DNA of 64,000 bases from a virus. Lineage: Duplodnaviria > Caudoviricetes. The stretch lies in IMG/VR virus record IMGVR_UViG_2904399447_000014, positions 1 through 64,000 of that record. The stretch is one strand, 5' to 3'. The position numbers and the translations under genes are program-made. Under the pieces are notes generated by a model. The model saw nothing but the letters and a program-made list of their open reading frames with translations. It was not told the DNA's origin and ran no database searches. Positions 1-7,209 of this stretch are shown here, one piece after another (the stretch's first letter is position 1; each line of letters opens with the position of its first letter).

Positions 1-1035
1 TTACACCTTTGTTTTAGTTCCATTTTCCATCAGATCAAGCATGGCGCCTCTTTGGGCCTCTATATGCCTGATATAACCCATAAGTGTCTCAGTTTTCGTC
101 CAGGTACCTTCCTGCATGATCTGCGGAACGCTGTAGCCGGCAGCAGCCATATCTTGCGCGGCACCTACGCGGGCACTATGACCAGTCCAACACGTATAAC
201 GATCTTTGTTGGCTTTTTTGTCGGTTTTCCCGAGTGATGCCCAGGCGTCGGAGAAAATCTTTTCTATCGCCGGCGCGCTTAGCGGAGTTGCAGTGTTGAT
301 GATCGCCTTGTTAGTTCGATGTGTTCTACAAAATAGAAATGCGTCAGGATGGTCAGATAACCCAGCTGCATTTATCCAGGACGTAAGCCGCTCGGTAGAC
401 AGGGCACTGAGTGATTTCGTTACCCCGCCGGCTTTCAGAATGGTCTTCGTATAAGTTACGTTCAGTATGATCCGCCCGTCCTGCGCCCGCTCAATATCAC
501 GAACGCGCAGACGGCCTATTTCACTCATGCGCAATAGGGTGCTATAGGCAACATGAAGAAATGCCAAATTACGGATTATCGCAACGCGATCCGAGTCAGC
601 CCAAACGGCATCGATGCTAAGAAGGTCATCGCGGCGGAATGGGACTGCTTGCCCTGTCCGGTCACCAGAAACCAACGCAGATCTGCGGGTTAACCGCATG
701 GCTCGAGCGATCGTCGGTGAAGCTGTGGGAGATACCACTTGGGCCTGTTTGTGAAGCATCGAGATCAGTGAAACATGAACTTCAATAGTGCCGACAGATT
801 GGCCGCTATCTTCCAAGTGTGAAATATAGTCTCGAAGATCCGCGCTTTTCATAGGAAAAAAAGTCCGACCTTCTTTCGCCGCCCATGCCGCGACTATACG
901 CATGACACTAATTAACTGCGCCCAGGTGTTCGTAGCGAAGGCACCTTTATCGCGGACGAACTCGCGTAGCCGCTGAGAAATATCGTCCTGCGCACCTACG
1001 GCCACCAAAGAATTCAGGTCTGTAATGCCGTTCAT
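1..1035 (-). CDS. cre: Cre/Dre-family tyrosine recombinase
   Basis: Catalytic motifs LLRMSEI, YTKT, WTGHSARVGAAQDM, TW..ETLMGY; segments such as APAIEKIFSDAW and NKDRYTCWTGHSARVG closely resemble Dre of phage D6. Confidence 0.96.
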   Translation of the reverse strand: MNGITDLNSLVAVGAQDDISQRLREFVRDKGAFATNTWAQLISVMRIVAAWAAKEGRTFFPMKSADLRDYISHLEDSGQSVGTIEVHVSLISMLHKQAQVVSPTASPTIARAMRLTRRSALVSGDRTGQAVPFRRDDLLSIDAVWADSDRVAIIRNLAFLHVAYSTLLRMSEIGRLRVRDIERAQDGRIILNVTYTKTILKAGGVTKSLSALSTERLTSWINAAGLSDHPDAFLFCRTHRTNKAIINTATPLSAPAIEKIFSDAWASLGKTDKKANKDRYTCWTGHSARVGAAQDMAAAGYSVPQIMQEGTWTKTETLMGYIRHIEAQRGAMLDLMENGTKTKV

Positions 1036-1388
1036 AATTTAATAGTCCTTCAATTTACAGTTGGTAGCGCTACGTGAAAAATAATAAGTCACCAGGGGTT
1101 TTCCCCGTCAGATTCTTTGTAGCGTTACCTAGCCCAATGTTGCTACTTTTTCCATCTGGTTGATGAAAACCACCAGCGGAGAGGGAAAGGCGACTATTCG
1201 CACATCTCAAATCCTGTCAGTGATTGGGACGTCACTTTTCACTGTTTCATGTCACGCCAAGTCTGTTTGGGTGATTTGCGAACAATCCTTGCCGGCAACG
1301 TGATTAAGCCATAGGTCGGTGACACAGAAAAAATTTTTCTAATGCGGACTCGTGACGATCGCCCCGCTCAACCTTCCATAGTCGCCCC

Positions 1389-1420
1389 TAACTTTATATA
1401 AGTCCCATTATATAAAGTTA
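1389..1420. other. rox/lox-like recombination site TAACTTTATATAA-GTCCCA-TTATATAAAGTTA
   Basis: Perfect 13-bp inverted repeats around a 6-bp asymmetric core, 32 bp like rox; lies between cre and c1, the loxP position in P1. Confidence 0.93.
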
Positions 1421-1666
1421 CCGCCAAGGAGTACAGAACCGGCTCAATTTTACTTAAGACGTTATCTTTTGGGGGCTAAGAACATTTTGTGATGTGTGCC
1501 ATGGATATCCACACCTCATGGGTATAAACAATGAAGAATATCAACGTTTGTAATGCGTAAAAGTTACGTTTTCGTTTGTTATAATTTGTAATGGACAGCG
1601 ATCTAAAACCAGATAAAATAGCGCCGATGTGAAAAACTAACTGACTATTATTGTAAAGGGAGTTTC

Positions 1667-1873
1667 GTGAGTTCTTTAACCTCGCCCGACGCTGAGCAAA
1701 TATTGCAGTCGGCTAAGAATAACTTTATTAGCAGTAGGTCTTCTTCTTTCATCGCGGAAATGATGTGCATATTAAGTGCTGAGTTTCCGAGCACTTGTGT
1801 GCAGGAGGCACATCGTAGGATCAAAGCCCTTACCAACATTCATAATGCGCATTCAAATAGTTTTAGTGGTTAA
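1667..1873 (+). CDS. 68-aa hypothetical protein upstream of c1
   Basis: GTG start after AAAGGGAG RBS; position and size of P1 coi but no convincing sequence match. Confidence 0.45.
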   Translation: MSSLTSPDAEQILQSAKNNFISSRSSSFIAEMMCILSAEFPSTCVQEAHRRIKALTNIHNAHSNSFSG

Positions 1874-2088
1874 TTTTTAAAATATATTTGGCGTCTATGA
1901 CCCCTTGTAGGGGTCGCTACTCCCTCCAGTAAATCCGAACCCATCCGACCACCCCCGTAGCGTTTTTCGGCCCTCTATGGGGGGGTGTAGGTGCGGAATC
2001 CTCTTAAATCACCACCTATCTCTACGATCCAGCAAAAAACATTCTCAATTCGCGTTGAAACGTATTAAAATAAAAAGTGTGTCTGTTT

Positions 2089-2105
2089 ATCTAATAGATA
2101 ATTAG
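2089..2105 (+). promoter_or_regulatory. Putative C1 operator ATCTAATAGATAATTAG
   Basis: Identical 17-mer at 34701-34717 and single-base variants at 17902-17918 and 31509-31525; lies just upstream of c1. Confidence 0.8.
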
Positions 2106-2151
2106 AATTTTTAGATGTATCCAGAATGGATTGTGCAGCGTTAATTAACGT

Positions 2152-3120
2152 ATGGGAATGAATAATAGAATGAATACTGCCCTGTTCGATACCGCGTTTA
2201 AAGCCTTTAAGGAAGTACGGAGGGAGTGGATTCAGATTTTACAGCGCTACGCGGTGTACATTAACGATACCGGAGACGGCGTGCAACGGCCAGTGGCGGT
2301 GATCGATGATCCCGAGGTTATGAAGCGCCTGAGTCACCTACAGCTTGAATGGGAGCGTTTTTACCTCCTGGCGGAATCTCGCCGGCTTAAAAAGTTGTCG
2401 CCGCTGCCGGTTTCGTTGTATTCACCGGTACCGGTCATCGCAAGTAGTGGTGACTTAGCTGCTGTCATTGTTACCCAGGCGGCCAATACCATGAAATGGC
2501 ACAGAGACAAGGTGATCATGTCCCTGGAAAAGAAACTGGCTCAGCATGTCAAAATGCGCCGGCTGGTGGAGTCTGGTGCATTGCCACAGAGTGAGTTGCC
2601 TTTAATCAATGCGACCATTGCCGTATACGAAGCCGATCTTGAGCGCTTCAACGCTATGCCTGAAGGTACAATGCTCGTTCGCCGGCAAAGTGGATATACC
2701 GACGTTATCGTAAAAATTAAGAATGAAGCCTCACAAGATGAGGTGTCGACCTTGAGTTCTATCTTCGACGGATTTGTTGAAATCGAGGTTATTCGTGTTG
2801 GCGCCTATGGCTGCGTGGTGGATGGTTCCAAACTGAAATATGAGCCAGTTATCGACGACAAGACCACGGCGGAAACTCGTAGAAATGTATACGCCAATGT
2901 CACGCCAGTACCTTGTGCACTAATGAGTTCTAACGCCTCCTTATATCTGCTCGATGACGTGAACCGTGCCAAAGCAGAAGCGAAGCAAGCTGCCCTGGAT
3001 GAGCGTCGTAAGACGAGTCGCCAGGTAATGCGAGCTTCTCGCGGTCATATTGATGAAGGCGCAGAAGAAAAGAAGCCGCTCCGCACACGGATTTCAAGCA
3101 AAGCTGTCCCCAAAAATTGA
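2152..3120 (+). CDS. c1: C1-like primary repressor
   Basis: Blocks similar to P1 C1 (DGVQRPVAVI, RRQSGYTDVIVK, YANVTPVPC..LYLLDDV); convergent with pacB as in P1. Confidence 0.85.
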   Translation: MGMNNRMNTALFDTAFKAFKEVRREWIQILQRYAVYINDTGDGVQRPVAVIDDPEVMKRLSHLQLEWERFYLLAESRRLKKLSPLPVSLYSPVPVIASSGDLAAVIVTQAANTMKWHRDKVIMSLEKKLAQHVKMRRLVESGALPQSELPLINATIAVYEADLERFNAMPEGTMLVRRQSGYTDVIVKIKNEASQDEVSTLSSIFDGFVEIEVIRVGAYGCVVDGSKLKYEPVIDDKTTAETRRNVYANVTPVPCALMSSNASLYLLDDVNRAKAEAKQAALDERRKTSRQVMRASRGHIDEGAEEKKPLRTRISSKAVPKN

Positions 3121-3145
3121 CGCTTTCAAAGCTGCGAGGAAGAGG

Positions 3146-4663
3146 CTATGCCGCCCCTTCCTCTGCATCATCAAAGTCATCCAGGTATTTCAACGCATCC
3201 ACTCGTACATTCTCCCTGTCGAAACCAACGTCATCATTTGCGGCCACAAAATCCACCAGCATCGAGAAGCAATACGTATCCCATAGGTCAGGTGACTTGA
3301 TATTAAGTTTCTGACGCATTACGGTTTTTTTCATGATCACGTTCTGGCCCATCTCATTTATGTCGACGGGGATCTTACTGGCTTGTTCAGCTGTTTTAGG
3401 GTTCGCATCAAGACGCATACGACCGGACTTTATCGCATCCCTTGCCATAATGTTGGCAAAAGCGCGTTGGTTGGCAAATCGCTGTTTATCGTCGCGGGAG
3501 TGCATTGGTTTACCCCAATTTATACGAACAACAGGCACACCAAGGGACTCTAATTCCCTCACTGTTGCGTCGCCAATGCCGTCGGCATCCACGGCTATTG
3601 TTATGTTGGGGAACTTCTCTTGAGTGCATTCCTGGAAGATATAGTGCGCAAACTTCACGGGGTGACAGTCGCCGGCCATCTCCATTACCAAGAACGGAAC
3701 TACTCGCCTGGTGTGGCGCCGACCGGACACCCTGAAAATACTCAACACTGATTTGTCGCGGCCGTTACCAACGTCACAACACGCAACCCAACCCCAGCCT
3801 TTATGGAGGCGTACTTTCCGCCGGGCTGCCCGTTCGCATTCATCACGCCCCAGCAGGAAGCCATGAGCATTTTTAGGGAACAGCCCAAGCACCTTGATTT
3901 GATACTCAGGGTTATCGCGGCCACCATACTCCAGCAGTTTGCTGCGTATAAACTTCTCATTTACCCAAGGGGACTCCTCAGAGTTAAGCGTAATAGCTGT
4001 AAAGTCGCCCCTTGGGTTTTCCTTGGAGCGGGCAAGCTTGTGATGAGAGTCGTAGAAATAGCCACTTGGGCGAGTTGGCTGAGATATCAGTAATAGTCGG
4101 TTATCGTCCTCTGTCAGGGCGCCAGTGATGATACCGAAAGCTTTGTCATTAACACCTGACGCTTCATCGATGATGTAAAACAGGTGTTTAGCGTGTTCGC
4201 CGGCAAGTGCCTCTTCATTACCACGGCGGAAGCCCTTTGGAATGACTGTCCAGCTGCCTTTATTGGCGATCTCATAGAAAGACGTATCGGTGATTACAAA
4301 GTAATTCTGGAGCCACGGTTGCCGGCGAACGCATTCATTCCAGTTTTGTTTTATATATTTGAAGATACCGGTCATAACCTGCTGGATTTTGTTCGCAACG
4401 ATAATGACGCGCGCACCTGGGTAAAACATGAGGTAGCACAGGATCATGATAGAGGTCATGTCCGATTTACCCGTACCATGCCCGGATGCAACAGTTGTGC
4501 GGCTACCAGTATCTTGGGCGGCGTTGATAATCTCTTCCTGCTGCCAGCTGGGGATCTTACCGAACAGCTCCACGGCTGCCAGGCTCCAGTCATAGCGATA
4601 GCGGATTACCATATCCCGCCAGCGGGGGTCGGTGATGACCGAACGTATCGTTTTACGCGCCAT
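3146..4663 (-). CDS. pacB: Terminase large subunit
   Basis: Walker A SGHGTGKS, Walker B IIDEASG, nuclease motifs CCDVG and SPDLWDT; strong likeness to P1 PacB; start moved to MARKTIRS. Confidence 0.97.
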
Positions 4664-5900
4664 CTTTTGCCCCTCCTGGCCCATACAACTCTTCGTCGGT
4701 TAGTTCGTCATCAAACTCCTCGTCAGACTCAAATTCACTACTTATAAACTCGCCCTCGCGTCCATCTCCATCGGCGTCAATATCTCCATAGCTACCTTCA
4801 TCAACGATCTGCGCGACCATTGCTCGCCGTTCTGCAATGAATTCCTCTTTACCCTCCCTCATTGCCTTATGCTTTCTGGCTTCTGCATCGATTTGTTCAT
4901 CATCGACGGTACTTGTATTGTCATCAGGCTCAGGTGGCTTGGTGGCCTCTATACGGGCTTGCTGCATCAAATGAGGGGGAACTATGCCTCCGTTTGCTTC
5001 GATGAACTCTGCCGTCTCCTGATAGCTCCAGTCGTGTTCCTTTTGTTGTTCATAGGCCACCGCAATCAGATTAAGAGTTTCCATTTTGATGCTGTGGGCC
5101 TCTTCCTCTCTGCGCGACTTCAACATCACTGAACGTAGTGCGCTCATCGATTTGGCTGTTTCACCGATCCCTACACTGACATTGAGTAGCATCTGTAGCG
5201 TTTTGTGTACCGGGTGCGTGCCTCCTTCATCTGGCTTGAACCCCTCAGCCTCCTCGTCTAACCGATCGAGACTACGATTGCGAGCGCGCTCCATGAGTTT
5301 TAGGTGGGAATAGACCATTGCAATTGAGCGAGCTTCTAGGGTGTTAATGAAGTTTGGATCTTGCATTTCCTCAAGGGTGTCCTCCACATCCTGGGGGCGA
5401 GGTGTTGCATAACGGCCATGAATAATGCACTCCTCGTTCATGTGTCCAAAGCGACGGCCGCCCCGCGCTTTAGGCACATGAAGCAGGGCCGCATCGTCCA
5501 CCCCGTTCGCCGCCGGGAAAGTGATCTTTTTGTCGCTTGCGTGATCACGTGCTTTTCGTGATCGCTTATGGTCTGCCGCCTCAGCGCTAAATCGTGTATC
5601 ACCAGAGCTGGTGCGGGTTCGTCGTGTTTTTTTGGGGGCAGTGATCACGTGATCACTTTCGTTCCCGATAGGATGATCACTTGAACGATCACGTTTGTGA
5701 TCACCTTTAGAGGCCTTTCCTGCTGTCGCTTTCTTTGGTTTATTTTTTGTGGCCGGCTGCGACTGGTCTGCCGACTTCTTTTTTAGCTCTCTACGGGCCG
5801 TATTTGCGTTCAAGCCGTGGGCTTCTGCATATTCCTTGACTGTGATCCCTCGCTCATTTTGGAGCGCGGTAAATCTTTCTCTGTGCTCATCCCAGGTCAT
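4653..5900 (-). CDS. pacA: Terminase small subunit
   Basis: [29 protein letters not shown]-terminus like P1 PacA; overlaps pacB start; contains the GATC cluster. Confidence 0.93.
5521..5704. other. pac (packaging initiation) site
   Basis: Eight GATC sites, five as TGATCA, in two clusters (5523, 5543, 5560 and 5643, 5651, 5675, 5687, 5699) flanking an about 80-bp gap in the 5' part of pacA; same layout as P1 pac. Confidence 0.88.
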
Positions 5901-5940
5901 TCGATGCTACTCAGTGGCCTAATTTCAGTACGTGCAACGC

Positions 5941-5959
5941 GGTATATCAAAAGTGAGTA
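5941..5959 (-). promoter_or_regulatory. Late promoter for pacA-pacB (TACTCACTT-TTGA-TATACC)
   Basis: Matches the motif found before eight other late operons; last -10 base deviates. Confidence 0.7.
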
Positions 5960-6105
5960 ATGAAGCTGGCATTTTTAGATTTATCATGTTTTTGAAATCA
6001 TTAATTAACCATTTGCAATCAAATATCATCTCTTTGCTTGAATGGATGATCGCAGTGAGATAATCTCTCACCGTGTTTTACCTAACAGAGAAAAAGGCGA
6101 AAAAA

Positions 6106-7209
6106 ATGAGCAAAAACAAACCAGTTTATGTGGCTTTAGACTGTGGCTCTGGCAATGTTGCTACCGTAATGGAGAATAAGGGCGAGGTTCAGATTCGTGT
6201 AACTCCATCGTTTGTAGCGAGAGTGCTGGGACAGGCGAAAGAAAGCGACTCGAAGACTAACTGGGTTACAACGGGTGCCAGCGGCGAACTGGAAACCTAT
6301 GCTGTGATGAATAAGGCTATCGGCGCCATTGATACCCGGACACCCGATTATCAACTGAGCGCGGCTTGTCGTGTGCTTGTAGTTAATGCTTTGGCACAGC
6401 TCAAACTTGGCGGCCGCAAAGTAGTAATCGCTGACACCTTGCCGGCAGACCAGTATTACGATGATAACAACGCCATAAACCGCCAGCAGATCGAGCTGAA
6501 GAGAAATTCCTTGATGACCGCGGTAACCAACGCCACCAGCGAAATTGCTTCACCTGATATCGTGTGTGTTGAAATTATGCCGGAAGCCGTGACCGCATAT
6601 AATGCAGCCCTATACACTCAGGATGGGCAAGATAACCCGTTCCTGATAGGTGCCAAGGATGTAGCCATTATCGATATTGGCCGCTATACCTGCGATGTCG
6701 CACACTTGGACTGTGACAACCATACCCTGTTCTCCCGTGGCACAACCCCTCGCGGTGTTCATATCATGCTGGAAGCGGTCAAAATGCAGATGATTGACCA
6801 GGCAGAAACGATCGGTATCCCTGTGGAGAAAGTTCGCGTGATGACGCTCGATGACATCGACTCCATTGTCCGCAAGGGCTACTACGGTTCGAGCATTGAA
6901 GCCTTGAAGGATAAACGTGTGTATCTTGACCATATCATCTCGGCTGCGGCAGCTAGCTTCGCAAGTGAAATCAACTATGCTCTCAAAACGATTGTTAAGT
7001 CACTTGGCAGCATCGACGCACTGATTATTGTTGGTGGCGGCGCCTACTATATTGGTGGCTTGCTTCGAGAAATGCCTAACTTTGTTGCGGATTGGCATGA
7101 TAACGTTGTGATACCCCACCAGCCAGAAACTGCGGTTGCACGAGGCGCCTACCTTGCCCTGCTGGCCCGGCATGATGTGGAAGAACAAACAACTGAAATT
7201 GAGGCTTAA
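6106..7209 (+). CDS. parM: ParM/StbA-family actin-like ATPase
   Basis: Phosphate-1 ALDCGSGNV, phosphate-2 IIDIGRYTCDV and adenosine IIVGGGA motifs; ATG at 6106 after AAGG. Confidence 0.9.
   Translation: MSKNKPVYVALDCGSGNVATVMENKGEVQIRVTPSFVARVLGQAKESDSKTNWVTTGASGELETYAVMNKAIGAIDTRTPDYQLSAACRVLVVNALAQLKLGGRKVVIADTLPADQYYDDNNAINRQQIELKRNSLMTAVTNATSEIASPDIVCVEIMPEAVTAYNAALYTQDGQDNPFLIGAKDVAIIDIGRYTCDVAHLDCDNHTLFSRGTTPRGVHIMLEAVKMQMIDQAETIGIPVEKVRVMTLDDIDSIVRKGYYGSSIEALKDKRVYLDHIISAAAASFASEINYALKTIVKSLGSIDALIIVGGGAYYIGGLLREMPNFVADWHDNVVIPHQPETAVARGAYLALLARHDVEEQTTEIEA

Follow-up and report, generated by a model that had tools for sequence, protein, structure and literature searches.

A tyrosine recombinase gene that lies next to a perfect 32-bp palindrome raises the question of whether the enzyme and the site form a private pair, with a specificity distinct from those of Cre/loxP and Dre/rox, or whether they belong to a wider family of such modules. 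The locus occupies positions 1 to 1420 of a 64,000-nucleotide stretch of viral DNA, the whole of which is referred to here as the window. The initial annotation had proposed a Dre-like recombinase with its own variant of the rox site. Our analysis points, with a probability of roughly 0.85, to the lox/cre module of an approximately 84-kb Serratia phage-plasmid of the P1/D6 type, with a site that is not specific to its enzyme. The features of the module are as follows.

1 to 1035 (ATG at 1035 to 1033), minus strand: intact gene for a Cre-type tyrosine recombinase of 344 amino acids, assigned from its open reading frame, Pfam and PDB matches, and catalytic residues.
1068 to 1124, minus strand: 57-nt leader element, an inverted repeat (CGCTAC...TCTGAC / ...TTCACGTAGCG) around a CCCCTG box, taken from a 22-locus alignment.
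1389 to 1401, plus strand: gene-distal 13-nt arm of the site, TAACTTTATATAA, identical in relatives whose recombinases are 56% to 92% identical.
1402 to 1407, plus strand: asymmetric 6-nt core, GTCCCA (TGGGAC in the gene orientation), read from the sequence.
1408 to 1420, plus strand: gene-proximal 13-nt arm of the site, TTATATAAAGTTA, the most widely conserved feature of the site.

The window opens at the stop codon of the recombinase, whose open reading frame is on the minus strand. The protein contains a Phage_integrase catalytic domain (Pfam PF00589; E = 2.8e-16), and phmmer matches to the Cre and Tre entries of the PDB cover residues 8 to 339 (E = 1e-80 to 4e-81). Homology to Cre is full length and includes the N-terminal DNA-binding domain, and the length of 344 amino acids falls within the 300 to 400 expected of such enzymes. 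The catalytic R, K, H, R, W, and Y all align with Cre residues 173, 201, 289, 292, 315, and 324. Pairwise comparison puts the protein at 44.7% identity with Dre, 43% with a Panto-type protein, and 40% with Cre. A counterpart with 100% protein identity is encoded on the Serratia marcescens plasmid NZ_OW849140.1, and the exact recombinase sequence is present on 121 public contigs. Judged from these comparisons, it is an ordinary, so far undescribed, Cre-family enzyme.

The palindrome that had been read as TAACTTTATATAA-GTCCCA-TTATATAAAGTTA is present at positions 1389 to 1420, letter for letter. It is a perfect 13-6-13 inverted repeat in which the 13-nt arms are 100% complementary and the 6-nt core is asymmetric; in the loxP frame the arrangement is 12-8-12, with AGTCCCAT as the 8-bp crossover region, and a loxP-like 8-bp crossover region has also been argued for rox (PMC4777119). 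A chance origin was ruled out by dinucleotide shuffling, as none of 100 shuffles gave a match with up to three mismatches allowed. The site is the sole copy in the 5.58-Mb genome assembly at up to two mismatches, and no additional half-sites with up to two mismatches were found across the 64-kb window. With the start codon at 1035 to 1033, the gap between the site and the recombinase is 353 bp, the site being upstream of the gene. Two inverted arms of 13 to 14 bp, a short asymmetric spacer, and a distance of less than about 1 kb from the gene characterize the targets of Cre-type enzymes, and the site has all three. It is probably a functional lox-type target of the adjoining recombinase.

Three further genes give the module its setting.

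2152 to 3120, plus strand: homologue of a C1-like prophage repressor, 322 amino acids (BLASTP against the D6 C1-like repressor; phrog_1678 match).
3146 to 4684, minus strand: pacB-type large terminase (64% to D6 PacB, 62% to P1-group PacB; PHROG terminase families).
4653 to 5900, minus strand: pacA-type terminase subunit (phrog_1711 terminase; E = 6.5e-71).

The order pacA-pacB-c1-site-recombinase is that of both D6 and P1, and the site is approximately 3 to 4.5 kb from pacA, as in P1. The initial annotation was borne out to this extent: the recombinase belongs to the Cre family, and a target of the lox/rox type lies a short way upstream of it. The C1-like protein is 23% identical to the D6 C1-like repressor over 270 amino acids (BLASTP; E = 3e-17). 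The region is 99.8% identical to the 84,132-bp circular plasmid NZ_OW849140.1 of S. marcescens, and relatives with 90 to 92% protein identity are found on IMG/VR viral contigs of 81 to 84 kb; gene order and element size are thus those of a P1/D6-like lox module on a plasmid prophage of about 80 to 100 kb. The gene order, the homology of the PacB and C1-like proteins, and the related 81- to 84-kb records together place the element, as far as sequence comparison goes, in a third lineage of P1-like phage-plasmids that is about equally distant from P1 and D6.

The palindrome lies in a 1.1-kb intergenic region between the divergent recombinase and immunity genes, and the counterpart region of P1 also has promoters and a LexA box. 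At such a location the palindrome could have no part in recombination and instead be regulatory, acting as an operator that binds, for instance, the C1-like repressor, or as a promoter or terminator within the divergent immunity region. We find this hardly credible, as the site also accompanies the recombinase gene on ordinary plasmids that lack adjoining C1-like or phage genes, is clearly homologous to rox, pox, and loxP, and has an arm position (position 8) that covaries with residue 259 of the recombinase. A scan of positions 1000 to 2200 for sigma-70 promoters and terminators performed no better than on shuffled sequence. A recombination target thus remains the preferred reading of the palindrome, and its distribution among other replicons bears on whether it is private to the window enzyme.

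The species genomes of GTDB and the viral contigs of IMG/VR were scanned for the site, with A or T allowed at the variable position of both arms and with any core. This returned 60 loci, each of which was paired with its neighboring recombinase. A maximum-likelihood tree of 38 family members (IQ-TREE quick search, with several nodes unresolved) contained two major clades. Clade A was composed of Dre, the IMG/VR proteins L064 and L066, and the Panto clade. Clade B comprised the Serratia phage-plasmid enzymes (window, L075, L076, and Serratia sp. JSRIV002) and a sister group of plasmid-borne recombinases from Rahnella, Rouxiella, Chimaeribacter, Duffyella, and Pantoea that are 54 to 61% identical to the window enzyme. 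The description "Dre-like" is therefore not apt: identity to Dre is only 44.7%, and the tree places the enzyme in clade B, not clade A.

Nor is the site the enzyme's own. The identical 32 bp, TAACTTTATATAA-TGGGAC-TTATATAAAGTTA in the gene orientation, adjoins a recombinase that is 56.5% identical in Rouxiella badensis, 58% identical in Chimaeribacter coloradensis, and 56 to 58% identical in five Rahnella species, as well as a 92% identical one in locus L075. One-base variants of the window site occur in L076, L020, Serratia sp. JSRIV002, and pRAHAQ02, and one-base variants of the TGGGAC core in L076, L020, and L006. The arms reach further still. They flank a different core, TGTCAG, on the two IMG/VR viral contigs that encode the clade A proteins L064 and L066 (47% to the window enzyme and 56% to Dre), and the window half-site serves as the gene-proximal arm in every Panto-clade site found and in an 85-kb phage-plasmid of Citrobacter freundii with a 42% identical enzyme. 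An enzyme can thus diverge to about 56% identity without any change in half-site or spacer. From this distribution, the 32-bp site is best described as an old, strongly conserved member of a lox/rox/pox continuum that is common to at least three recombinase lineages. A simple inverted-repeat search among relatives (12-8-12, up to two mismatches, AACTT-like start) came up empty for Duffyella L097, L098, L099, L068, L070, L087, L052, or JK004, which are unlabelled on the tree.

One of these relatives had already entered the literature. Supplementary Figure 1 of Karimova et al. 2016 (PMC4957104) lists the recombinase of Rahnella sp. Y9602 plasmid pRAHAQ02 together with a predicted site, which we matched to the window site allowing for machine-reading errors in the PDF. 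The possibility, raised at the outset, that the pair was already catalogued is thus partly realized: essentially the same site is in print, but as a candidate only. In the sequence record, the core and the gene-proximal arm of the pRAHAQ02 site are identical to those of the window and the distal arm is one base off. The pRAHAQ02 enzyme also belongs to clade B, but it is 57% identical to the window protein and is encoded on an ordinary 133-kb plasmid, between toxin-antitoxin genes, rather than on a phage-plasmid.

A close relative among the characterized systems is the Dre/rox pair of Escherichia phage D6 (Sauer and McDermott 2004, cited in PMC4777119). The rox sequence quoted in the initial annotation is correct: loci whose proteins are 100% identical to Dre carry TAACTTTAAATAA-TGCCAA-TTATTTAAAGTTA, and the D6 record agrees. 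Both modules are of the same type, on P1-like phage-plasmids with the gene order given above, and the enzymes have identical catalytic residues and share P259 and K263. The arms differ at 1 of 13 positions, where the window has T and rox has A, so that TAACTTTAAATAA(T) arms are absent from both sides of the window site; the cores (TGGGAC versus TTGGCA in the gene orientation) differ at 3 of 6 positions, the site-to-gene distances are 353 bp and 152 bp, and the proteins fall in separate clades. The difference from rox at the same position of both arms (position 9, equal to loxP position 10), together with a different core, was thus correctly noted. The conclusion drawn from it, that a symmetric change implies co-evolved specificity, is not supported, because T is the majority state and rox is the variant. 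A in both arms occurs only with proteins at least 70% identical to Dre, and almost every other site in the collection, loxP and the rest of clade B among them, has T in its place; L100 has C. Parsimony applied to the tree makes T the probable ancestral state at loxP position 10 and the A of rox a derived one. Positions 8 to 10 in the loxP frame read CGT in loxP, TAT in the window site, and TAA in rox, which makes the window site intermediate between loxP and rox. Protein positions covarying with the A or T state were also looked for. Position 47 is L in the Dre lineage only; as this represents a single evolutionary event without statistical weight, it was rejected as a determinant.

Could the A-to-T difference in both arms still have co-evolved with the window recombinase, so that the pair would be orthogonal to Dre/rox and Cre/loxP? 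The shared arm difference, the different core, and the modest identity of the enzyme to Dre (45%) and Cre (40%) are what one would expect of such a pair. A precedent also exists in Jelicic et al. 2023 (PMC10250229), where YR8 acts on its own site alone though Dre acts on the YR8 site; a one-way specificity of the window enzyme is therefore possible. Against this, the identical site accompanies 56 to 58% identical enzymes and the same arms accompany 42 to 47% identical ones, T is the majority state with A derived in the Dre lineage, and P259 and K263 are common to the window enzyme, Dre, and Panto. Published assays point the same way. Dre and Panto recombine each other's sites (PMC4957104): Panto recombines rox and a symmetrized A/A pox, whereas native pox has one arm of each type, the tested pox having been symmetrized from a native site with one A-type and one T-type arm. 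Dre tolerates two to four half-site mismatches, and cross-reaction is often one-way (PMC10250229). Dre recombines pox, a site with four half-site mismatches, and lox8, which is described there as two mismatches from the rox half-site. A different core makes sites mutually incompatible and does not make enzymes orthogonal: rox sites with changed spacers are incompatible with each other, yet Dre still recombines each with itself (PMC4777119), so that the different core is uninformative about enzyme specificity. A co-evolved, orthogonal pair is thus improbable, and since the same site is found beside far more distant recombinases, we regard the module as an ordinary member of its family. By analogy with the Dre and Panto assays, orthogonality toward Dre in particular is unlikely.

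The same considerations apply to any use of the pair as a tool. It would add one more uncharacterized Cre-type recombinase, for which clean orthogonality is unlikely because Dre and Panto cross-react in published assays; its site would be heterotypic to rox, as the spacers differ. A search of paper text for YR8/lox8 and for the window arm sequence found nothing relevant.

Panto/pox of Pantoea sp. aB (PMC4957104) resembles the window pair in its rox-like arms, in the T of the native proximal pox arm, and in P259 and K263. It differs in protein sequence (43% identity), in an outer arm base that is A rather than T (AAACTTT), in its A-type distal arm, and in its variable cores. The Panto-clade sites found are all asymmetric in the same way, with AAATAA in the distal arm and TTATAT in the proximal arm (for example, L017, L018, L021, L035, L057, L077, and L095), and their 6-nt core varies freely among near-identical enzymes (TAAGTC, TAAGCC, TAAGTG, TAAACA, TTACTC, and TACCCA). 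In contrast, the clade B core TGGGAC is almost invariant down to 56% enzyme identity. Asymmetry is also seen on a D6-like phage-plasmid, the 85.6-kb C. freundii plasmid NZ_CP114569.1 (L104), where a lopsided site, TAACTATAGATAA-TGGGGG-TTATATAAAGTTA, lies at approximately 1601 to 1632 and the arms disagree with each other at two positions. A 690-kb plasmid of Pantoea dispersa (L101) carries TGACTTCATATAA-TTGGCA-TTATATGAAGTCA, which has the rox core between other arms and adjoins a clade B enzyme with R259.

Several features of the sequence indirectly suggest that the site is in use. It is 97 to 100% identical in 14 loci, and the 120-bp flanks of those loci are 7 to 34% identical once the recombinase is no more than 81% identical. 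Near the site, NZ_OW849140.1 differs from the window by two SNPs, which lie 2 and 8 bp beyond the right arm, and the site itself is unchanged. Across lineages, the site is always 47 to 353 bp upstream of the recombinase gene and in constant orientation. The arms also track the enzyme at residue 259, which, like residue 263, has been named as a specificity residue (PMC4957104): enzymes with R259 in Cre numbering pair with arms that have C at position 8 (Cre, L069, L101, and L071), and P259 is matched by T8 in all enzymes with TTT arms, that of the window included. The window enzyme combines P259 with K263, as do Dre and Panto. Cre/loxP of P1 has R259 and C8, 40% protein identity, and arms that differ at positions 8 and 9 (CG to TA) and at the innermost base only; Cre is a full-length homologue with the same architecture and the same presumed roles, and loxP shares T10 with the window site. 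Position 43 is A in the window enzyme and R in Dre, Panto, and the Rahnella enzymes. It is variable inside the Serratia clade, and the window enzyme may therefore have a subtly different specificity.

A further sign comes from homology breakpoints. In seven Rahnella and Rouxiella loci (L003, L005, L011, L012, L013, L015, and L019), the gene-proximal flank is 80 to 99% identical, starting within 1 to 18 bp of the site, and no similarity of the distal flank was found in any pair. L005 and L012, for example, are 99% identical proximally and unrelated distally, and the sole difference between their sites is in the distal arm. These breakpoints suggest natural exchange of flanking DNA at the site. 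Because the conservation island, the fixed placement and orientation, the covariation of residue 259 with position 8, and the breakpoints all coincide, the site is probably functional.

A mobile module whose boundary happens to be the site would also account for such a breakpoint pattern. The site and recombinase would then form the end of a small module that enters various replicons, and the palindrome would be an attachment site rather than a site of dimer resolution; homology among the Rahnella-group plasmids does stop exactly at the site on the distal side. An inserted module should have two sites, however, and there is one site or half-site per locus and per 64-kb window. Both flanks are syntenic in the Serratia clade, and the precedents of P1 and D6 favor resolution and circularization, which leaves an attachment site quite unlikely.

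If the breakpoints do record exchange, it is conceivable that the 32-bp site defines a cross-replicon compatibility group, that is, a common docking point at which plasmids and phage-plasmids could fuse and swap flanking modules. The constancy of site and spacer down to 56 to 58% enzyme identity, the variety of replicons with the identical site (phage-plasmids in Serratia and unrelated large plasmids in Rahnella, Rouxiella, and Chimaeribacter), and the breaks at the site in the Rahnella group led us to this idea, which we hold only tentatively and consider unlikely. If true, it could let a P1-like phage pick up and transduce plasmid DNA. Aside from that idea, what deserves more interest than the notion of a private pair is that the entire site, including its spacer, is so deeply conserved among divergent enzymes and kinds of replicon, and that homology breaks there. 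The fixed site, the derived A of rox, the tracking of position 8 by residue 259, and the breakpoints all bear on the extent to which recombinase sequence reveals target specificity.

As a lox/cre module of a phage-plasmid, the locus would be expected to work in the manner of its P1 counterpart. Two recombinase monomers would bind the two 13-bp arms at 1389 to 1420, and two such sites would synapse as a tetramer. The tyrosine equivalent to Cre Y324 would cleave at the edges of a crossover region of roughly 6 to 8 bp, and strands would be exchanged across the asymmetric core via a Holliday junction, without accessory factors, with the core asymmetry setting the direction of the site. This sequence of binding, synapsis, cleavage, and Holliday junction formation is established for Cre. 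In P1, Cre/lox serves in the resolution of plasmid dimers and in the circularization of infecting DNA. By analogy, the window module may resolve plasmid dimers before partition and may circularize terminally redundant phage DNA after infection. We infer these biological roles, as well as the degree of cross-reaction of the enzyme with Dre, Panto, and Cre. Catalysis on the 1389-to-1420 site we likewise infer from sequence. For comparison, the YR series of Jelicic et al. 2023 followed the same discovery logic of a Cre homologue and a nearby palindrome; in that paper (PMC10250229), approximately 500 pairs were predicted and 8 validated, and 8 of 17 comparably predicted pairs were active in Escherichia coli assays while about half failed.

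Between the site and the gene, the leader element at 1068 to 1124 is a second conserved feature. It lies 32 nt upstream of the recombinase start codon in the window and 30 to 36 nt upstream in most of 22 aligned Cre-type genes from both major clades (L003, L005, L007, L018, L074, and L101 among them). The consensus reads CGCTAC(GTG)AA(A/T)TCTG, approximately 12 nt, CC(C)CTG, approximately 14 nt, and (CAGAA)TTCACGTAGCG, with an inverted repeat of 16 to 18 bp. Upstream of dre just its right half is seen, and P1 cre has no similar sequence in front of it. The element probably has a regulatory role for the recombinase gene. Window positions 1 to 6000 had no Rfam match at E values up to 1. The arms contain mismatches without compensating changes, as would be expected of an operator or promoter more than of an RNA hairpin. 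In the Rahnella and Panto loci, the inner part may resemble a sigma-32 promoter (GTGAAA-N14-CCCCTGCAT); this pattern does not fit the window's own copy, and a sigma-32-like promoter is no more than a lead.

A few minor observations were made along the way. Two sequences resembling the site came from metagenome-assembled genomes (MAGs). In a Cocleimonas MAG of the Thiotrichales (L016), the T-type arms of the window site with the core CTGTAA are present at 4379 to 4408, 856 bp from a candidate partner, a tyrosine recombinase that is only 29.5% identical to the window enzyme. A Clostridia MAG (L010) has a rox-type palindrome at 6382 to 6411, with no recombinase within the 8-kb locus. In the window itself, a 68-amino-acid open reading frame without a Pfam or PHROG match is located between the site and the C1-like gene, at 1667 to 1873 on the plus strand; its position and size are presumably comparable to those of P1 coi. 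It is followed by a GC-rich hairpin, GACCCCTTGTAGGGGTC, at 1880 to 1925.
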